Assembly: GCA_020692245.1 (NCBI GenBank)
Contig: JAIMKT010000001.1
Span: 125,173-189,172 of the forward strand
Source: Microcoleus sp. GA_180221_E-2-1-MAG-45_12
GTDB lineage: Bacteria; Cyanobacteriota; Cyanobacteriia; Cyanobacteriales; JAAUUE01
Length of the DNA: 64,000 nt
Direction of reading: 5' to 3'
In this document: piece after piece, positions 55,797-64,000 of the stretch
How positions within the stretch are numbered: position 1 is the first letter of the stretch
Layout: each line of letters opens with the position of its first letter
Translations under genes and position numbers: made by a program
Notes under the pieces: model-generated
Told to the model about the DNA's origin: nothing
What the model saw: only the letters and a program-made list of their open reading frames with translations
The model's database searches: none

Positions 55797-57986
55797 ATGG
55801 CTAAACTCCCTCAGCATGATGGTGACAGGAAAAATTCTCGACTTGTTGAGCAGCAGAGGCAACAAGAATTTCAGCAACAAACTCAGCAAGCAATCCACCA
55901 CATCATCCTCGGTCATACCCGTGGTAATTGTCAGGGTAATCAAGGTAATCGGGGTAATCATCAAAGCTGGCAGCTTTTGACGGAATTAGCATCCTATCTT
56001 CGATCGAGCTTTGGGGTAGATTTTTGCTTGCTCTGCCCACCCCAACAGGGGAATGGAATTCTGGTTACTGCTGATGAGAGCTACTCTTGTTGTCGATCGC
56101 CCCTCATTTCATGGTTAGTAGCCTCAGAACTGTTAGTCCCGTCGGGAGAGATGATCGCTGTTCAGAACCTTCAAAACTTTCAAAACTTGCCAGAGATCGA
56201 TCGAACTTCCTTACCCCCATCCTTCAGGGATATGGTTAGTTTACTAGGGATAGAAACCCCCACTAGTGAAGATTTAACTAATAATAATGAGAGCTTAACT
56301 GGGAGTTTAACTAGAAATTTAGCGGAGAATTTAGCAGAGAATTCAACCGGAGAATGGATCATATCGGGAGGACTAGTGCTGCTGGGATGTTGTCAGGAGC
56401 AGAACTGGACGCAGGGACAGCAGGAATTACTCCGCACCCTCGTTCCCCTAGTGGCGATCGCTCTCCACCAGAGCCAAATTCAACATCAGCTAGATATCTG
56501 TTATCCCTACCAAAAACTAGTTAATCAAATTACCCAAGCGATTCGAGACCACGAAGAAATTAATCAAATTCTCCAGCAGGCGATCACGGCGATCGGACAA
56601 ACCCTTGGGGCTACAACGGGGACAATTCTCCTGTTGAAATACAAAGAACCTGCCTGGAAAAGAGCCGATCGAAAATCCTTAGAAATGATCACAGCTCACA
56701 AAGCTGCTCAGTGGTCAGCCCCCCAAAATTTTTCACCCCTCCTTCCCCAGAAAGTTAGCTTTTCCCTTGCCCTTTCTCCCCTCTGCGGTCAAGCTTTCCA
56801 ACAAGCTCCCCAACCCTTGATGATGACGACCAATCCGGGGGGGGTGATATTTCCTTTAATGGGAGCGATGGGTCATGCTCATCCGGCAAGAGTGCTGGGG
56901 TTTTTAGTATTGGAATACCACCCTGTGCGGCAGTTACTGGAGGGTGAGTTGGAGTTAATTAGCTCTGTGAGTAATCAAATTAGCTACGCCCTGATCCAAG
57001 ACCAAACCCTGCGCCAAGTGAAGGCGATCGTCGATGACCGGACAGCCCAACTCCAAACCAGTCTAGAAGTGCAAGGGCGGCTCTACGAAAAAATTCGCCA
57101 TCAGGTAGATCAACTGCGGCAGTTAAATCAGATCAAAGATGAGTTTATCAGTGCCATCAGCCACGAACTCCGCACCCCCTTAACCAGCATGAGTCTGGCG
57201 ATTCGGATGCTCCGAGAAGAAACCCTCACCCCCGCCAAGCAAGCCAAGTATCTGGAAGTATTGGAAGAGCAGTGTCAGCAGGAAATTTTGTTGATTAATG
57301 ACCTCCTCGCCCTCCAGCAACTAGAAGAAAATTCGCCCCTAATTAGCCTAGAGACGATCGATCTCCAGCCACTTCTGCAACAACTAGCCCAAACTTTCCA
57401 TAGACATTGGACAACCAAGGCTCTCACCCTAGAATTAGAAATAGTTACTGTCCCCGCCCCAAATTCTAAAGCTGGTAATGTTAAGGTTGCAAATACTAAA
57501 GCTGGAAATTCCAAAGCAGAAACTTCTCATCCTAAATCAATCAAAGTCGTTACCGATGAAAATACCTTTGGTGCATCTCCCTTGCCCGCAATCTCCCTAA
57601 TCACCCACCCCGACAGTCTCCAGCGCATCTTAGCAGAACTGTTGACTAATGCTGGAAAATATTCCGATCCAGACACCACCGTCCGCCTCCGCATCGAACA
57701 GGCAGCAGCAGAAACTATCTTTAAAATTGTCAATGAAGGGGATGGGATTGCCCCAGAGGAGCAGGACTTGATCTTTGAAAAGTTTCATCGTACTAAAACT
57801 GCCGTTAAGAAGACGATCGCTGGCACTGGGTTGGGTTTGGCTCTGGTTAAGCCCCTTGTGAAACACCTCCGAGGCAAGATTAGTGTATCGAGTAAACCCC
57901 AGGACGATCGACCCACTTGGGTAACTTGCTTCACGGTCAAGCTGCCACATCTTCAAGTTGATGATACAGTGAACAGTAAGCAGTGA
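55797..57986 (+). CDS. GAF-domain sensor histidine kinase
   Basis: H-box FISAISHELRTPLTSM, N-box LLTNAGKYS, G-boxes NEGDGI and GTGLGLALV. ATG at 55797 preferred. The C-terminal VNSKQ* is encoded by a heptamer array. Confidence 0.8.
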   Translation: MAKLPQHDGDRKNSRLVEQQRQQEFQQQTQQAIHHIILGHTRGNCQGNQGNRGNHQSWQLLTELASYLRSSFGVDFCLLCPPQQGNGILVTADESYSCCRSPLISWLVASELLVPSGEMIAVQNLQNFQNLPEIDRTSLPPSFRDMVSLLGIETPTSEDLTNNNESLTGSLTRNLAENLAENSTGEWIISGGLVLLGCCQEQNWTQGQQELLRTLVPLVAIALHQSQIQHQLDICYPYQKLVNQITQAIRDHEEINQILQQAITAIGQTLGATTGTILLLKYKEPAWKRADRKSLEMITAHKAAQWSAPQNFSPLLPQKVSFSLALSPLCGQAFQQAPQPLMMTTNPGGVIFPLMGAMGHAHPARVLGFLVLEYHPVRQLLEGELELISSVSNQISYALIQDQTLRQVKAIVDDRTAQLQTSLEVQGRLYEKIRHQVDQLRQLNQIKDEFISAISHELRTPLTSMSLAIRMLREETLTPAKQAKYLEVLEEQCQQEILLINDLLALQQLEENSPLISLETIDLQPLLQQLAQTFHRHWTTKALTLELEIVTVPAPNSKAGNVKVANTKAGNSKAETSHPKSIKVVTDENTFGASPLPAISLITHPDSLQRILAELLTNAGKYSDPDTTVRLRIEQAAAETIFKIVNEGDGIAPEEQDLIFEKFHRTKTAVKKTIAGTGLGLALVKPLVKHLRGKISVSSKPQDDRPTWVTCFTVKLPHLQVDDTVNSKQ

Positions 57987-58107
57987 ACAGTAAACAGTGA
58001 ACAGTGAACAGTGAAGAATCTTGATTAGTCTTTCGTAACTGAATCAATAACTATCCACTATCCACTCAATAACTGATAACTGATAACTGATAACTGATAA
58101 CTGATAG
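57967..58107. repeat. CAGT-core heptamer arrays: (CAGTGAA/CAGTAAA)n left, (AACTGAT)5 right
   Basis: Left array at 57967-58015. Five perfect AACTGAT units at 58071-58105, ending 5 nt before the ABC1 kinase ATG. Confidence 0.9.
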
Positions 58108-58111
58108 CCCA

Positions 58112-59791
58112 ATGTTGAGCAAAATTACACAGCCAGAGTCTTTTCGCTGGCAAAAATCTAATGCATCTGCCTTGGGGCGACAACGGGATATTTTCTTAGC
58201 CGCTACCCAGTGGATTTCCTACCTGTGGTGGGATAGTATTTTTCCCAAAAATTCCTCTGCCCATCGCTACAAACGGGCTAAATGGGTAGTGAGCAAGCTC
58301 CTAGATTTGGGGCCAACATTTATCAAGATTGGGCAGGCTCTGTCTACCCGTAGTGATATTTTGCCTTTGGAGTATGTAGAAGAGTTGGCGATGTTGCAGG
58401 ATAACGTACCACCTTTTGGTTCGGGGCTGGCGATCGCCGTCATTGAGGCAGATTTGGGCAAATCAATTTATGCGATCTATCGAGATTTTGATCCGATGCC
58501 GATCGCTGCGGCTAGTTTGGGGCAGGTTCATCGAGCGAGGCTACACACCGGGGAAGAAGTTGTGGTCAAAGTCCAGCGTCCGGGATTAAAGCAATTATTT
58601 GATCTAGATGTACAGGCTTTGCAGAAATTAGTTAATTTTTGTTATCGCTATTTCCCTTGGGCAAAAAAGTATGAATTACAAGCTATTTATGAAGAATTTG
58701 TCAGTGTTTTATATCAGGAAATAGACTATACGATCGAGGGCAAGAATGCCGATCGCTTCCGAGAAAATTTCCAAGATTATCCGGGGGTAATTGTCCCAAA
58801 ATTATTCTGGCAGTACAGTAGTAAAAGAATATTAACTATTGAATACGTACCGGGAATTAAAATTAATGATTGTGTCGCTCTCGAAGCTCAAGGCATTAAT
58901 CTCAAGGAACTAAATCTAGTCGGGGTCAGTTGCTATCTCAAGCAATTACTAATTGATGGTTTTTTTCAAGCCGATCCCCATCCGGGCAACATGGCAGTAA
59001 GTGATGACGGTCAGATTATTTTCTATGATTTTGGGATGATGATCGAGATGCAATCCCTCGATCGAGAGCAGATGATTAAAACTTTTTTTGCTGTCCTCAA
59101 GAAAGATACTAATGCGGTGATTGATTCTCTGGTTTTAATGGGGTTAATTGAGCCAGTCCCAGATATGACTCCCGTGCGGCGGTTGATGGATTTTATCCTC
59201 CAAGAGTTTACCGAAAAACCCCTAGAATTACCTTCTCTAAAGCAAATGGGTGGCGAAATTTATGAGATTTTTGAGGAGCAACCCTTTCGACTCCCAGCAA
59301 AAATGACGTTTATTATCAAAGCCCTCACGACTCTAGATGGCATTGCTCGCACCCTCGATCCCAAATATAATCCCATTGCCTGTGCCAAGCCTTTTGTTAA
59401 GAGTTTTACTAACGATCAAAGTAAGAGTAGTTTATTCAAAACTATTGCTAATCAAGCAAGAGAACTAGTAGTTAGTCGTTGGAATCAACCCAGTAAAACA
59501 GAGTTATTATGGCAGCGTTTGGAAGAAAGATTGGAACGGGGCGAACTGCAATTACGGGTAAAATCTCTGGAGAGCGATCGCACTCTAAAAAGAATTAATA
59601 TTGCCCTCAAAGCCATTATTTATGCTTGTCTTAGTGGTTTTACTCTTCTCACTGGAGTTGTCCTCCTGATGGGCAGCTATGCAGGTTGGGCGTATCTACC
59701 TTTTACTATTTCATGTATCAGCTTTTTTATATTTTTTTGGCACATGTTTAATCTAGGAGTTAAAGAAAAATTGGATAAGCTAGCGAAGTAA
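58112..59791 (+). CDS. ABC1/UbiB-family atypical protein kinase
   Basis: GPTFIK.GQ.LSTR.D.LP..Y..EL..LQD.VPPF; AAASLGQVHRA; HADPHPGN. Two C-terminal TM segments. Confidence 0.9.
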   Translation: MLSKITQPESFRWQKSNASALGRQRDIFLAATQWISYLWWDSIFPKNSSAHRYKRAKWVVSKLLDLGPTFIKIGQALSTRSDILPLEYVEELAMLQDNVPPFGSGLAIAVIEADLGKSIYAIYRDFDPMPIAAASLGQVHRARLHTGEEVVVKVQRPGLKQLFDLDVQALQKLVNFCYRYFPWAKKYELQAIYEEFVSVLYQEIDYTIEGKNADRFRENFQDYPGVIVPKLFWQYSSKRILTIEYVPGIKINDCVALEAQGINLKELNLVGVSCYLKQLLIDGFFQADPHPGNMAVSDDGQIIFYDFGMMIEMQSLDREQMIKTFFAVLKKDTNAVIDSLVLMGLIEPVPDMTPVRRLMDFILQEFTEKPLELPSLKQMGGEIYEIFEEQPFRLPAKMTFIIKALTTLDGIARTLDPKYNPIACAKPFVKSFTNDQSKSSLFKTIANQARELVVSRWNQPSKTELLWQRLEERLERGELQLRVKSLESDRTLKRINIALKAIIYACLSGFTLLTGVVLLMGSYAGWAYLPFTISCISFFIFFWHMFNLGVKEKLDKLAK

Positions 59792-59827
59792 TCAGTTATC
59801 AGTGAACAGTTATCAGTTATCAATGAG
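59791..59827. repeat. CAGT-core heptamer array (ATCAGTTATCAGTGAACAGTTATCAGTTATCA), inverted relative to 58075-58105
   Basis: The reverse complement matches the upstream (AACTGAT)n array at 29/31 positions. Begins within the stop codon of the kinase gene. Confidence 0.9.
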
Positions 59828-59857: not shown

Positions 59858-60370
59858 TTAGAGGGTTTCTTTTTGTTGAATTAGGGCTTGCCATTCCACA
59901 ACAACTGCGGCGGGAATTGTTAGAAGACGCTTTTCTTGGGTGAGGGGAAGACTCAAAATTAGGTTCTGATCTTTTGGTAGTTGATCTGTTAAGGGATTAA
60001 TATCAAACTGCCCCACATTATCTGCGGGGGATTTCTTGATAAATTCATCTTCAGCGATTAATTGCTGACCATTGACAAGGTTAATTTCTAGATTGCCGGG
60101 ATGAGTAAATTTATCTCGATCGGGAAAGCCGACTAATCTTAGTTCTAGTTGATCTTTATGGGCAAACAATACTACTTGCCAAGGAGATTTTTGGTCATCT
60201 TTGAGAGTCTGTCGAGATTGGATCATGATTTGTCCGGGGGCTTCTTCCATCGATCTAATTGCTGCCTCGGCGGGTGAGATTTACCATAGCTGACTAACCA
60301 TTAAAGAAAGAGTGAAAATTATGACAGTTATCAGAGAGAAGGCGTAGATTTTGTTTATTTTATAGAGCAT
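59858..60370 (-). pseudogene. Secreted conserved cyanobacterial protein (possibly DUF3122-like) interrupted by an in-frame TAA between signal peptide and mature domain
   Basis: Own translation: MLYKINKIYAFSLITVIIFTLSLMVSQLW-TAA(60283-60281)-ISPAEAAIRSMEEAPGQ.... This is the same frame as the track ORF 59858..60250. Confidence 0.5.
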
Positions 60371-60409: not shown

Positions 60410-60733
60410 TTAGTCTTCGCAGGAGGATATATTCTCGATCGAGAGATTAGATATTTCTATTAAAGATTGAGCGCAGAGGCTGAGATACTTGACATCGGCT
60501 AAAAAGTAGATGCGATTATTTCCTTCCTTCCGACAGGCCACTACCCCCGCCATCCGCAGCATTTGGAGGTGTTTAGAAACATTTGCTTGGCTTAAGCCTG
60601 TGGTCACACAAATTTGCCCGACATTTTGTTCTTCCTGACAAATACACCAGAGAATGTACAAGCGACTAGGGTCACTGAGGATCTTAAATAATTCTGCAAG
60701 GCGATCGAAGTCTGGTTGAGTTTTTACAGGCAT
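60410..60733 (-). CDS. ArsR/SmtB-family metalloregulator-type repressor
   Basis: LFKILSDPSRLYILW and wHTH GLSQANVSKHLQMLRMAGVV. Cys cluster CICQE...QIC. Lies 17 nt downstream of sqr. Confidence 0.85.
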   Translation of the reverse strand: MPVKTQPDFDRLAELFKILSDPSRLYILWCICQEEQNVGQICVTTGLSQANVSKHLQMLRMAGVVACRKEGNNRIYFLADVKYLSLCAQSLIEISNLSIENISSCED

Positions 60734-60750
60734 GGAAAATAAAAAGTTAG

Positions 60751-62073
60751 TTATGAATTAGTCACAGGAATTTGTGTTGGAGATGTTTGGGGTGACAACA
60801 CCGGGGAAGAGAGCTTTAGCCCAAAAAGTAGTCTTAATCCTAATTTTTCAAACCAAGGTAATCCTAACCCCAAACGCATTTTCCATAGGAAATATAGCTC
60901 AAAGGCAATTTTTGCCCAGTTTACCCAAATTCCTTGGGCAGCGTAGGAGTAGCGTCGTTTCCCGGTGACAGGATCGGCAACCACAGGGGCAGCAATATAG
61001 GCAATACCTGTATTCCCAAACTCAGCAAAACAGATAGCTTCTAGGGTCGGAGTTTCTAGGGGTTTATGGATTATTCCTAATTCTACAGCGATATTATGGG
61101 CGGCAACCATTGCCATCGCTTCTACCATTTGTCCACTTTTGGGCATCCCGATGGGAACAGGGGTTTTATCTGGTTGCTCTAGCTGGACACTCACGCCTAC
61201 GCCATAGATGCGATCGTGATCTCGGTGGCGCTGGGTTGGCAAGATGGGCAGGAACCCCTTTTCATTTCCAAGTCCCGATGCTTGAACAAATTTGGCTCCC
61301 CGAAAGGACGGTAAAATCATACTATAACCGGAGGCAAACGCCCGACCATCCCGGAGATAAACTGTATTGGGGGTAAGTCCGGCGATCGCTGCATTGGTAA
61401 TAGTCTCAATGCCCCGGAACCGCATTAATTCCTCAGTCAATTCCTGCGCCCGATGCACCTCCGCAATTCCTAAATGTCCAATATAGGGTTCTGGGGTGAT
61501 GTAGGTGATCTTGACTTGATCTCGGAGTCCTTTTTGGCGTAGCTCCCAATCAGCCAAGAGTAAAAATTCGTAGGCGGGGCCAAAACATCCGGCTCCCGGA
61601 GCGGCTCCTACAACTAGATCGGTCGGGTTTTGCAAAAATTCTTCCCAAGCTGTGTGGGCTGCCAAAGCATGGTGAGGGTTACAAACTGAATGACCATACT
61701 CACCTAATCCGGGAACTAGGTCGGTGGCTAATTCCGCACCACTGGCAATGACTAAATAATCATAATCAATCTGCTGTCCTTCCTTTGTCATCACTAGGCG
61801 TTGCTCTGGATTAATCAACTCTACTTTTCCTTGGAGCCATTCCAGCCCGTGCCGCCGACTCAGAGTAGCCATATCTAGCTGAATATGCTCTAGGGGAATA
61901 TGTCCCAGCCCTACCTGAATTAGACCGGGAATAAACGTAAATTTGGGGGAGTCTGACAATAGGGTGACTTGGTACTGCGCTCCGAGGTGTTGTTTGAGTT
62001 CATAGGCGGCGGGTAATCCTCCTAATCCTGCTCCAATGATTAACACTCGACCTTGCTGGTTGGTTTTATGCAT
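60751..62073 (-). CDS. sqr: Sulfide:quinone oxidoreductase, type I-like
   Basis: FAD fold VLIIGAGLGGLPAAYEL. All three SQR cysteines are in context (GHSVCNPHHA, GAGCFGPAYE, LEAICFAEFG; compare Aquifex SQR C124/C156/C347). C-terminal amphipathic membrane helices FELYFLWKMRLG. ATG at 62073 with an AAGAGGA ribosome-binding site. Confidence 0.85.
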   Translation of the reverse strand: MHKTNQQGRVLIIGAGLGGLPAAYELKQHLGAQYQVTLLSDSPKFTFIPGLIQVGLGHIPLEHIQLDMATLSRRHGLEWLQGKVELINPEQRLVMTKEGQQIDYDYLVIASGAELATDLVPGLGEYGHSVCNPHHALAAHTAWEEFLQNPTDLVVGAAPGAGCFGPAYEFLLLADWELRQKGLRDQVKITYITPEPYIGHLGIAEVHRAQELTEELMRFRGIETITNAAIAGLTPNTVYLRDGRAFASGYSMILPSFRGAKFVQASGLGNEKGFLPILPTQRHRDHDRIYGVGVSVQLEQPDKTPVPIGMPKSGQMVEAMAMVAAHNIAVELGIIHKPLETPTLEAICFAEFGNTGIAYIAAPVVADPVTGKRRYSYAAQGIWVNWAKIAFELYFLWKMRLGLGLPWFEKLGLRLLFGLKLSSPVLSPQTSPTQIPVTNS

Positions 62074-62116
62074 AAAGTCCTCTTGGTAAATTTTTTTGTA
62101 AAATCTTTTCAACAAA

Positions 62117-62132
62117 ATAACTAAATAGTTAT
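62117..62132. promoter_or_regulatory. 6-4-6 palindrome ATAACT-AAAT-AGTTAT in the sqr / DUF302 divergent promoter region (candidate ArsR-type operator)
   Basis: Perfect inverted repeat read directly. Lies 44 nt upstream of the sqr ATG and 61 nt upstream of the DUF302 ATG. Confidence 0.35.
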
Positions 62133-62192
62133 ATACTTATGCTAGTACACTAACACATAGTTTAATAACGTTCAATATTACAGAGAAATAAA

Positions 62193-62591
62193 ATGTATCA
62201 TTTCAGCAAAAAACTGCCCGTTACTTTTGAAGAAGCGATTCCCCTAGTTAAAACTGCCCTCCAGCAGGAAGGATTGGGAGTGTTGACAGAAATTGATGTC
62301 CAAGCGGCTTTTCAGAAAAAACTCGATCGCAGCTTTCACCGTTATCTAATTTTGGGAGCCTGTCATCCCCATGTTGCCTACGATATGTTGCAAATCGATG
62401 ATAAAGCCGGGGTCATGTATCCCTGTAATGTGGTGGTGCAGGAACATACCGATGGAGTGGTAGAAGTTTCTGCCGTTGATCCCCTTGTGATGTTTTTGAT
62501 GGTGCATAGCCCCCAAGCCAAGGAGATCGCCCTCAAAGCCAGTGCCATGATGCAGAGAGTCATTGCCAGCTTACCTAGTAGGGAGGGTTAG
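62193..62591 (+). CDS. DUF302-domain protein
   Basis: F.EA...V...L...G.GVLTEIDV......KL.......Y.ILGACHP..A...L......G...PCNVVV.E pattern. Confidence 0.8.
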   Translation: MYHFSKKLPVTFEEAIPLVKTALQQEGLGVLTEIDVQAAFQKKLDRSFHRYLILGACHPHVAYDMLQIDDKAGVMYPCNVVVQEHTDGVVEVSAVDPLVMFLMVHSPQAKEIALKASAMMQRVIASLPSREG

Positions 62592-62594
62592 ATC

Positions 62595-63587
62595 ATGTGG
62601 AGAGTACTGCTATTTTTGCAACGTCAATTAGTCTGGTCTGTGCCTGCCTGTATGGTGGCGGGGATTACCTTGGGCTATTTCTTTGATCTAAGTTTTCTCA
62701 AAAGTACGATCGTCCCCTTTACCTTTTTGATGGTTTATCCCATGATGGTGAATCTGCAATTTGGGAAACTTTTAGCGGGGGGCAGTTGGAAATTACAAGG
62801 GATCGCCCAAGGGATTAATTTTCTGGTGATTCCTTTTCTGTCCTACGGTGTGGGCTGGCTATTTTTTCGAGATCAACCCCTAATTTGGTTAGGTTTACTC
62901 TTGACTGGCTTACTCCCCACCAGTGGCATGACCATTTCTTGGACGGGTTTTGCCAAGGGAAATCTGAATGCAGCAATTCAAATGACGGTGATTGGTTTAA
63001 TTGCTGGTTCTCTAGCTACGCCTCTCTACGCCAAAATGTTACTGGGGCGGGCGGTGGAAATTCCCCTAGGGGAGACTTTTAAGCAGATTGCGATCGTCGT
63101 ATTTCTGCCCATGATCCTTGGCTTTCTGACCAAACGAGGATTACTACTTTTTTATAGCAAAGAGAGGTATGACAAACAACTCAAGCAAAAATTTCCCGTA
63201 TTCTCGACTCTAGGAGTATTAGGTATTGTCTTTGTGGCGATGGCTCTCAAGGCTAAGGATGTGGCAAGTAACCCTCTAGTTGTCCTTTCCTATTTTGTCC
63301 CCCTGAGCATTATTTATGGAGTAAACTTTGGTTTAAGCACGATCGTCGGTAAATATCTCTTTAATAGAGAAGACGGGATTGCTCTAGTTTATGGCACAGT
63401 GATGCGAAATCTCTCCATTGCCCTAGCGATCGCCATGACCGCCTTCGGCAAGGAACAGGGTTCAGAAATTGCCCTAATTATTGCCATGTCCTATATTATT
63501 CAGGTTCAAGCCGCCGCCTGGTATGTGAAATTTAGTGATTATTTCTTTGGGAAACCAAAACAATTAGCAGAGGATGGTCAAGGGTGA
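62595..63587 (+). CDS. BASS/SBF-family permease related to ACR3 arsenite transporters
   Basis: About 10 TM segments. MVYPMM.NL... and LLPTSGMTISWTGFAKGNLNAAI blocks. Lacks the RC(I/V)AMV Cys motif of bona fide ACR3. Confidence 0.65.
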   Translation: MWRVLLFLQRQLVWSVPACMVAGITLGYFFDLSFLKSTIVPFTFLMVYPMMVNLQFGKLLAGGSWKLQGIAQGINFLVIPFLSYGVGWLFFRDQPLIWLGLLLTGLLPTSGMTISWTGFAKGNLNAAIQMTVIGLIAGSLATPLYAKMLLGRAVEIPLGETFKQIAIVVFLPMILGFLTKRGLLLFYSKERYDKQLKQKFPVFSTLGVLGIVFVAMALKAKDVASNPLVVLSYFVPLSIIYGVNFGLSTIVGKYLFNREDGIALVYGTVMRNLSIALAIAMTAFGKEQGSEIALIIAMSYIIQVQAAAWYVKFSDYFFGKPKQLAEDGQG

Positions 63588-64000
63588 ATCAACTTAAAAG
63601 CTGGGGATTTTCTGCCCAATGGTGGAAGGGAGAACGGGGCGAATATTGGGTAATTGGTCAGGGACTACTGTTTCTGGGAATTATCCTCCTGCCTGTTTAC
63701 CCTCTGGCAAGTATTGTAACCAGTATTGTTAACAGTTTCCCCGGTAGCTCGATCGACCCATCAGCTCCAATTTGGCAATACACAAGCTGGGGATTAACTG
63801 GTTTATTTGGGACGATAGCCGCAGTATTTTTGTTAGGAGGCAGCATTAATTTGGGGACAAACCTGACCCCCCTGCCCCACCCCAAGGATGAGAGCCACCT
63901 AGTCACGGCGGGAGTCTATAGCCTAGTGCGGCATCCCATCTATAGTGGGGTAATTTTTCTGACTCTTGCCTATGGTTGTTGGCAGGGGAGCTTATCCCAT
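63584..64000 (+). CDS. ICMT/PEMT-like membrane methyltransferase (partial; continues beyond the window)
   Basis: Own translation from GTG at 63584 (GTGA overlap with the upstream stop): VNQLKSWGFSAQWWKGERGEYWV...LVTAGVYSLVRHPIYSGVIFLTLAY. Confidence 0.65.
   Translation, partial: MNQLKSWGFSAQWWKGERGEYWVIGQGLLFLGIILLPVYPLASIVTSIVNSFPGSSIDPSAPIWQYTSWGLTGLFGTIAAVFLLGGSINLGTNLTPLPHPKDESHLVTAGVYSLVRHPIYSGVIFLTLAYGCWQGSLSH

Follow-up and report, generated by a model that had tools for sequence, protein, structure and literature searches.

A putative variant of the suo sulfide-oxidation divergon in Microcoleus, with a permease distinct from ACR3 and an added ICMT-like methyltransferase

Introduction

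Loci encoding sulfide:quinone oxidoreductase (SQR) underlie sulfide tolerance in cyanobacteria, as well as sulfide-driven anoxygenic photosynthesis, a trait on which models of Proterozoic oceans and of modern sulfidic mats draw. The only version studied experimentally is the plasmid-borne suo divergon of Synechocystis, whose transporter is ChrA-like, and this version has shaped the view that such loci are "arsenic-related". We wondered how this picture applies to a locus of Microcoleus sp. GA_180221_E-2-1-MAG-45_12, in which an sqr-arsR pair is divergent from genes encoding a DUF302 protein, an SBF-family permease, and a membrane methyltransferase. The locus lies in a 64-kb stretch of contig JAIMKT010000001.1, which we call the window and to which all positions refer. 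Two questions arise: is the locus related to suo, and does its second arm serve sulfur or arsenic? Our answer, which we consider probable but by no means certain, is that this is a suo-type divergon that handles sulfide, with a type I SQR arm and a DUF302/permease/methyltransferase arm under the control of one repressor.

Results

The locus and the suo divergon

The SQR of the window aligns end to end with the type I structure from Aquifex aeolicus (3HYV, E 5.6e-83) and over its full length with the Acidithiobacillus ferrooxidans SQR of the 3T2Z type (E 1.7e-80). Two further SQRs, the Acidianus enzyme (1.6e-28) and the human enzyme of type II (1e-14), match it much less closely. C131, C163, and C348 are found opposite the catalytic C124, C156, and C347 of the Aquifex enzyme, and a GAGLGG motif is present. 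The cysteine triad, this motif, and the structure matches at around 1e-80 bear out the first-pass annotation of the window, which had described a type I SQR with all of its catalytic cysteines and the FAD fold. The protein is 53% identical to the PCC 7002 enzyme, which was classed as type I by its authors (PMC7042703), and 68% identical to SuoS over 92% of its length.

When the DUF302 protein was searched against plasmids with tblastn, its best match was encoded on Synechocystis pSYSM, at 72% identity. The annotated gene order of pSYSM is DUF3122, Tll0287-like, ArsR, and SQR, divergent from DUF302 and ChrA, and this is the suo divergon of Synechocystis sp. PCC 6803 (sll5036-sll5035 / slr5037-slr5038), in which Grim and Dick identified a DUF302 gene (PMC5061849). 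In both loci a type I SQR gene is followed by a gene for an ArsR-type repressor, and the divergent operon opens with a DUF302 gene, in the position and orientation of slr5037. The control regions measure 117-119 bp and hold the same palindrome (ACAACTATGTAGTTAT in pSYSM). Because the ArsR protein is 72% identical to SuoR (sll5035), the DUF302 protein is 72% identical to SuoC (slr5037), and a DUF3122 gene lies downstream of the repressor gene in both, we take the locus to be a suo divergon. The first-pass annotation had drawn the parallel to the suoS-suoR pair, and the identities of the SQR and ArsR proteins agree with it, but it had called the divergent arm different from suo. This does not hold: it had missed the SuoC match, the DUF302 protein is the SuoC orthologue, and only the transporter is replaced. 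The locus is a variant of the known suo-type sulfide-oxidation system, with the transporter swapped for an unrelated permease and a methyltransferase added.

Every coordinate of the first-pass annotation was reproduced from a six-frame list of open reading frames (ORFs) and the raw sequence (Table 1), including the 119-bp control region and the position of its palindrome. The two genes of the sqr-arsR pair are separated by 17 nt, the permease gene starts 3 nt past the DUF302 stop codon, and the GTG of the methyltransferase gene at 63584 overlaps the permease TGA by 4 nt, as GTGA. A methyltransferase homologue in a Synechocystis metagenome-assembled genome (MAG; locus L006) begins at the same residue as this GTG. 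A mechanical ORF call extends the sqr frame to a TTG at 62115, and we adopted the ATG at 62073 because homologues start at the Rossmann fold. The window ends within the methyltransferase gene, and the full 183-aa gene was taken from GCA_017973935.1 (L001:10990-11541), in which the contig stops 132 bp past it.

Table 1. Features of the divergon and its surroundings in the window.
Feature	Position	Strand	Basis or remark
DUF3122 gene	59858..60370	-	PF11320 131.9 bits; 39 nt downstream of arsR
ArsR/SmtB-family repressor, SuoR orthologue	60410..60733	-	Pfam HTH_5; NF033788 HTH_metalloreg 79.6 bits (cut-off 55)
Type I SQR, SuoS orthologue, 440 aa	60751..62073	-	Structure and SuoS alignments
Shared control region between the divergent arms, 119 bp	62074..62192	.	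ORF coordinates
Predicted SuoR operator, palindrome ATAACTA-AA-TAGTTAT	62117..62132	.	Sequence and cross-locus conservation
Promoter-like site of the DUF302 operon, TCAACA-17 nt-TATACT	62109..62137	+	9/12 matches
DUF302 protein, SuoC orthologue	62193..62591	+	PF03625 77.9 bits
SBF/BART-superfamily permease, ACR3-related clade	62595..63587	+	PF01758 98 bits; sits where SuoT would
ICMT/PEMT-fold membrane methyltransferase	63584..64000 (cut by window end)	+	Codons 1-139 of 183

The DUF3122 gene is probably the third gene of the sqr arm, as the order SQR-ArsR-(Tll0287-like)-DUF3122 recurs in pSYSM and in many other loci. In these, a Tll0287-like (DUF3365) protein with a CxxCH haem motif is usually encoded between arsR and the DUF3122 gene, downstream of sqr (L003:3519-4142, L007, L008, L010, L011, L016, L031, L087, L180, and L181). 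There is no copy of this gene anywhere in the 64-kb window, and the close relatives also lack it. Over 11,406 overlapping bases the window differs from the GCA_017973935.1 assembly at a single position, 60282, which is T in the window and G in the assembly. This T turns TCA (Ser) into a TAA stop at codon 30 of the DUF3122 gene, in the signal-peptide region; the codon also encodes Ser in L178 and L091. The stop may be a real variant, a pseudogene mutation, or a sequence error. From an internal ATG at 60250, a 130-aa product lacking the signal peptide could still be made.

A predicted operator shared by the two arms

We next consider how the two arms might be controlled. The palindrome ATAACT-N4-AGTTAT in the control region is exact, and is in full a 7-2-7 repeat (ATAACTA-AA-TAGTTAT). 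It occurs once in the 64 kb, against 0.01 copies expected from shuffled sequences, and all eight perfect copies found in 182 fetched loci lie between sqr and a DUF302 gene. In 27 loci, with up to 2 mismatches allowed, the 750 nt upstream of sqr contain 0.92 copies per kb, and the rest of the sequence 0.075 per kb. Related palindromes are located in the orthologous intergenic regions of pSYSM and of L006, L011, L012, L014, L017, and L031, with two copies each in L012, L014, and L031. Similar sites also precede YgaP-like/DUF2892-PetC operons, Tll0287-like/DUF3122 genes, and the methyltransferase gene of one homologous locus (L180). The palindrome of the window occupies the spacer of the promoter-like site of the DUF302 operon and touches its -10 hexamer; in pSYSM and L006 the layout is the same, with TTGACG-16 nt-TATATT around the palindrome. 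As summarized in PMC4307280, SuoR binds the promoter that suoS-suoR shares with suoC-suoT, and it represses both pairs. This published binding and the phylogenetic footprint together back the earlier proposal of a single bidirectional regulon driven from the palindrome, which we predict to be a conserved operator and the SuoR site.

The repressor carries four near-invariant cysteines, C32, C42, C67, and C87, with each of these columns conserved in 16-17 of 18 sqr-linked cyanobacterial ArsR proteins; C30 and C105 are confined to the clade of Synechocystis and the window. These residues and the HTH_metalloreg score (Table 1) agree with the earlier description of an ArsR/SmtB repressor with a cysteine cluster.

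A further set of repeats in the window contains the half-site of the palindrome. Tandem heptamer arrays flank an ABC1/UbiB kinase gene, namely ACAGTGA (7 copies), ATAACTG (5.4 copies), and AGTTATC (5 copies), at 57966-58015, 58069-58106, and 59787-59822. The ATAACTG and AGTTATC arrays are mutually inverted and hold the operator half-site ATAACT/AGTTAT, and both L091 and L178 have similar sequence at the corresponding position. These arrays are probably a repeat of the STRR type.

The permease is ACR3-related but not an ACR3

The permease belongs to the SBF family (PF01758, 98.4 bits against a gathering threshold of 24.3), and within it we compared the two functional families to which it might be assigned. 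It scores 91.1 bits on the ACR3 model TIGR00832 (cut-off 282.8) and 49.5 bits on the BASS model TIGR00841 (cut-off 326.3), and we reject membership in both equivalogs on these scores and, for ACR3, on the residues at two positions. With two bona fide ACR3 genes from real ars operons as references, the Cys of the ACR3 "ARCIAMV" motif is opposite the Thr of "LPTSGMT", within an invariant "PTSGM" segment. The ACR3 Glu ("LVEVP") is opposite a Gln. Relatives of the window protein from cyanobacteria and archaea have the same Thr and Gln. Both the Cys and the Glu are required for arsenite transport by ACR3. The earlier description of a permease that is related to ACR3 but lacks its Cys motif is therefore upheld.

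The relatives of this permease at 65% identity or more make up at least 120 protein clusters, the named members of which are all cyanobacterial, and annotation pipelines call them "arsenic resistance protein", "bile acid:sodium symporter", or "ACR3". In 120 related loci (1.13 Mb) we found no ArsC, ArsH, ArsD, ArsO, or ArsN; the sole exceptions are two weak hits, one ArsA-like and the other ArsC-like, and a true ACR3 with at least 35% identity is absent as well. The first-pass annotation had raised the case of a true arsenite ACR3 in an ordinary ars operon, and none of these loci presents it. What does recur was taken from a metagenome scan with the permease, followed by clustering of the neighbours and Pfam scans. 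The neighbours include sigma54/PAS activators (10 loci), canonical or divergent DUF302 proteins (about 10), thioredoxin (9), flavoprotein-rhodanese fusions of the CoADR type (8), SQR (6), DsrE (5), Tll0287-like proteins (5), channels of the SLAC1/TehA type (4), and OsmC (3), and permease relatives with such sulfur-redox neighbours span bacteria and archaea. The gene context of the permease thus speaks for reactive sulfur species and against arsenic. A literature search for ACR3, sqr, and persulfide together returned nothing relevant.

Alternatively, the right arm could be for arsenic. The permease would then move arsenite or thioarsenate, the latter formed from As(III) and the sulfane sulfur of SQR, the methyltransferase and a further protein of the TIGR04282 family would modify the arsenical, and the ArsR protein would be mainly an arsenite sensor. 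The permease does score better on the ACR3 model than on the BASS model, but its TIGR00832 score is a third of the cut-off, and the ACR3 Cys and Glu are replaced by Thr and Gln throughout its clade. Surveys do speak of "arsenic-related sqr clusters" (PMC11304991), yet the permease loci hold the two weak ars hits only, and the wider family adjoins thiol and persulfide genes. Likewise, class I methyltransferases that take the place of the ICMT-like enzyme in some loci score best against ArsM models, but with 63 bits these matches fall far short of the threshold of 263. The remaining arguments for arsenic are the reports on Synechocystis, in which SuoR responds to arsenite as well as sulfide and SuoT imports arsenite (as summarized in PMC4307280, PMC5061849, and bioRxiv 10.64898/2026.06.23.733971), and the operon extension of close relatives, in which a gene reaches 203.6 bits on TIGR04282, "arsenosugar biosynthesis glycosyltransferase" (cut-off 134). 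Weighing these, we consider an arsenic role for the arm unlikely.

The DUF302 protein, the companion of the permease, is well above the gathering threshold of its family (23 bits) and matches TT1751 (1J3M) with E 5e-20, with the conserved C57 and C78 both aligned. It has no predicted transmembrane segment and is thus soluble. Searches of the PDB with the DUF302 protein and the permease were uninformative as to function: nothing but structural-genomics entries and remote ASBT homologues came up. DUF302 occurs in sox clusters (PMC5037610, PMC11034169), and in Sulfitobacter sox clusters it is found beside YeeE-family genes (PMC11034169). On a Halorubrum megaplasmid a DUF302 gene and a permease gene are next to one for a CoADR-rhodanese flavoprotein fusion, and the pair therefore extends to archaea.

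The arrangement is common at cyanobacterial sqr loci

We next asked how often the arrangement occurs. An SQR scan with one genome per species was made, and 80 loci were annotated by tblastn and ORF calls. Cyanobacterial type I sqr loci usually have a divergent DUF302 gene where SQR identity is about 55% or more and the upstream sequence is long enough. In L010, L012, L014, L017, and L031 this gene is followed by the same SBF-type permease (62-67% identity), with a gene for a paralogue of the Rieske protein PetC between the two in three of these five (L010, L014, and L031) and also in the metagenomic loci L102 and L110. Among the 80 sqr loci, ChrA follows DUF302 only in the two from Synechocystis, L003 and L006. 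Look-ups that started from permease homologues found the full arrangement in all three cases, which were Synechococcus elongatus (L086), a MAG (L087), and Cyanobacterium sp. Dongsha4 (L088), the last with a rhodanese gene between the DUF302 and permease genes. The order sqr, divergent from DUF302-(PetC/rhodanese)-SBF, is also found in L089 and in the metagenome loci L102, L110, L112, and L122. The first-pass annotation had implied that this divergent arm is rare; among the cyanobacterial loci examined, the SBF permease is the commoner partner of sqr and DUF302, and ChrA the less common. Surveys had in fact met the DUF302-permease arrangement, with the permease labelled "arsB" (PMC5061849, PMC11304991). 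Plasmid pAQ7 of PCC 7002, the second cyanobacterium whose SQR has been studied, was considered as a source of functional data, as it has sqr and a PetC paralogue, and was set aside; its sqr locus has no DUF302, permease, or methyltransferase gene.

The position shared by this permease and SuoT raises another possibility, that the permease imports HS- or thiosulfate to feed SQR-driven electron flow and does not export a product. SuoT is described as an uptake transporter (PMC5061849), and the PetC paralogue in L010, L014, L031, L102, and L110 points to electron transport and not to detoxification alone. H2S crosses membranes freely, however, so that its import is not obviously needed, and the signal-peptide rhodanese encoded downstream in close relatives fits the handling of a product outside of the cytoplasm. 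Although the direction of transport cannot be read from sequence, we think import quite unlikely.

Further genes recur in these surroundings. The full-length Rieske paralogue of PetC type (289 bits against a cut-off of 250) is in or beside sulfide loci in L094, L179, and L181 as well, and in many cases a YgaP-like/DUF2892 gene precedes it, with a palindrome-like site upstream, which suggests that the regulon includes an alternative b6f subunit. In the metagenomic cyanobacterial contig L110, a divergent psbA-like gene (L110:4357-5259; TIGR01151 487 bits, below the cut-off of 596) lies inside a DUF302-PetC-...-rhodanese-permease operon and recalls the reported closeness of sqr to genes for atypical D1 proteins. 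In filamentous cyanobacteria, a protein of about 900 aa with cNMP-binding, sigma54-interaction, and Fer4_5 domains recurs together with a CysK-like PALP enzyme beside the permease or the methyltransferase (L008:4771-8507, L012:1829-5503, L118, L179, and L180). This large protein may constitute a second regulatory layer, of the activator type.

The methyltransferase and the extent of the operon

The full-length methyltransferase passes the thresholds of PF04191 (30.1 bits against 25) and PF04140 (26.4 bits against 24) and matches the Methanosarcina enzyme Ma-ICMT (4A2N) along its whole length (E 2.2e-6), with its RHPIY and KEE aligned to RHPMY and KEE of the latter. Its hydrophobic segments fit a membrane protein. 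The earlier assignment to the ICMT/PEMT fold is in line with the two Pfam matches and the aligned motifs. On NF040696, the equivalog of Ste14 type, it scores 50.4 bits and does not reach the cut-off of 160.

The gene follows the permease gene in the clade of the window (L090, L091/L092, and L178). Among these, L178 is a 4.9-Mb contig whose SQR, DUF302, and methyltransferase proteins fall into the 90%-identity clusters of the window proteins. Past its methyltransferase gene there are genes for a 194-aa rhodanese with an N-terminal hydrophobic segment and for a DUF2064 protein, which is the TIGR04282 protein mentioned above (L178:10629-11941), and then a convergent gene. The same rhodanese and DUF2064 genes continue the operon in L091/L092 (L091:7564-8855). 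We think that the right-arm operon probably comprises five genes.

Outside of this clade, a methyltransferase copy with 48% identity follows suoT in L006. In Leptolyngbya sp. "hensonii" (L179), the methyltransferase gene overlaps that of an SQR-like flavoprotein by ATGA, near a DUF302-PetC pair. The Alkalinema-type homologue (L180) is encoded within 6 kb of sqr, DUF302, and Tll0287-like/DUF3122 genes, with the palindrome-like site 41 nt upstream of it, and in Stenomitos (L181) the order is ArsR-NMO-MT-rhodanese. In all, homologues are found in sulfide-oxidation clusters in 5 of the 7 lineages examined, and the ICMT-like family tracks cyanobacterial sulfide clusters. A class I methyltransferase with no homology to it follows the permease in L097, L100, and L110. 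On the strength of these homologue contexts and class I enzymes, methylation looks like a recurrent accessory of sulfide loci. We tried to classify the class I enzymes as ArsM, UbiE, or Mdd types, and rejected these assignments as all matches were far below cut-off. The SQR-like flavoprotein of L179 (L179:4841-6513) is 387 aa long and 28% identical to type I SQR, and a Lactamase_B protein is encoded nearby along with the DUF302-PetC pair.

The least likely of the explanations that we weighed, and in our view a very improbable one, is that sqr-arsR and DUF302-permease form the whole functional unit and that the methyltransferase is a housekeeping passenger for membrane lipid or protein carboxyl methylation, for although the gene follows the permease only in the clade of the window, the family models that fit it best are the generic ones for ICMT and PEMT, and two homologues (L093 and L182) have contexts without sulfur genes, it overlaps the permease gene by 4 nt, has homologues in the sulfide clusters just described, including the overlap with an SQR-like gene in L179, and is replaced in the same position by a non-homologous methyltransferase in three loci.

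Discussion

We propose that the divergon handles sulfide in the following way. In the left arm, sqr-suoR(-DUF3122), the type I SQR would oxidize H2S to sulfane sulfur and reduce plastoquinone, and the arm would also make the autoregulated ArsR-family repressor with its four conserved cysteines. We infer that this repressor binds the 7-2-7 palindrome at 62117-62132. A single operator would shut down both arms, as the palindrome is located a short way upstream of sqr and also within the rightward promoter, in its spacer and -10 region. Release would follow from modification of thiols by sulfide-derived polysulfide or persulfide, or by As(III). The right arm would deal with what SQR makes or uses: the DUF302 protein would be the soluble partner of the permease, the permease would transport thiosulfate, sulfite, polysulfide, HS-, or in any case a small anion of sulfur, and the membrane methyltransferase, if it is analogous to MddA, would act on a thiol or on a sulfide species. 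The first-pass annotation had inferred that sulfide oxidation is coupled to the export or the methylation of a product containing sulfur or a metalloid, and the gene context makes this plausible. By analogy with suo, the divergon is probably inducible by sulfide, and also by arsenite. In Synechocystis, Nagy et al. reportedly saw in 2014 an induction of about 200-fold by sulfide or arsenite.

Some of our observations weigh against this proposal. None of the other 78 metagenomic permease loci has the methyltransferase, and the homologues in L182 and in L093, where a TehB-like methyltransferase follows, are not in the company of sulfur genes. L086, L087, L102, and L112 share the gene order, yet a palindrome with 2 or fewer mismatches is missing from them, and the operator is therefore not universal. 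A sigma-70 promoter scan did no better on the window than on shuffled sequence (8 sites against 7.9), and we used the promoter-like sites only together with their conservation across species. Finally, the TIGR04282 gene, the arsenite reports for SuoR and SuoT, and the class I methyltransferases with best scores on ArsM models lend some weight to a role in arsenic, unlikely as we consider it.

A bolder form of the proposal, which we consider unlikely, is that the ICMT-like proteins are a family of cyanobacterial membrane S-methyltransferases in the SQR regulon, making volatile methylated sulfur compounds out of sulfide or of polysulfide from SQR, as analogues and not orthologues of MddA, and that DUF302 and the permease form a widespread two-component transporter for reactive sulfur anions in bacteria and archaea. 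If this were true, DUF302, an orphan domain for 20 years, would gain a function.

The sulfide-handling proposal has consequences beyond this locus. The data suggest that the mainstream cyanobacterial version of the divergon uses a permease other than that of Synechocystis, one that is not an ACR3 and whose relatives are linked to persulfides and thiols. The conserved operator points to a small regulon of sqr, DUF302, an alternative PetC, Tll0287-like/DUF3122, and the membrane methyltransferase. New here are a non-ACR3 permease clade in sulfur-redox company, the DUF302-permease pair in archaea, and an ICMT-like family at sulfide clusters. A recurrent annotation error, by which the permease clade is called "arsB" or "arsenic resistance protein", is corrected, and three orphan families are opened to study: DUF302, the permease clade, and the methyltransferase.

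Comparison with known systems

The methyltransferase invites comparison with MddA (NF045656), a membrane H2S/MeSH S-methyltransferase of cyanobacteria among other groups (PMC11445057, PMC12904073). Both are small, integral-membrane, SAM-dependent, ICMT-like enzymes found in cyanobacteria, and MddA sets the precedent for such an enzyme methylating sulfide. Only the C-terminal 78 residues of the window protein match the MddA model, however, at 21.7 bits against a cut-off of 270, and at 183 aa against 238 model positions the protein is nearer to prokaryotic ICMT. With this match confined to the C-terminal third, we rejected membership in MddA.

The repressor resembles BigR/SqrR, which are ArsR-family proteins that control sulfide-oxidation genes including sqr through cysteine chemistry, and a PDB search with the window protein finds 3PQJ and 6O8K. 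It scores 44 bits on NF040642, against a cut-off of 155. In the ungapped HMMER register to 3PQJ, the BigR cysteines, which we take to be C42 and C108, fall on W29 and S95 of the window protein, so that its sensing site is not the one used by BigR/SqrR. The score and the different location of the conserved cysteines led us to reject membership in this family also.

The DUF302-permease pair recalls the thiosulfate uptake pair YeeE/YeeD (TsuA/TsuB), in which a permease gene is likewise beside a gene for a small, soluble, cysteine-containing partner. YeeD is needed by YeeE. The two pairs have no sequence relationship, and the likeness is an analogy of organization only, which may serve as a model of the way in which the DUF302 protein and the permease might work together. 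ACR3 (TIGR00832; TCDB 2.A.59) and the window permease share a superfamily fold and are about 25% identical over their full length, but the permease has Thr and Gln for the ACR3 Cys and Glu, a third of the ACR3 cut-off score, and a place in no ars operon among the loci examined.

The closest known system remains suo itself, from which the window locus differs in several respects. The SBF-family permease replaces the ChrA-like SuoT (slr5038), to which it has no similarity (E 1.4). The window locus adds the ICMT-like methyltransferase, with rhodanese and TIGR04282 genes next in close relatives; downstream of suoT in pSYSM there is no remnant of the methyltransferase gene. Conversely, pSYSM has the Tll0287-like gene, which the window lacks. 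Lastly, the pSYSM cluster is plasmid-borne and near transposase genes, whereas the gene order that flanks the window cluster is conserved in three relatives, including one with a 4.9-Mb contig.

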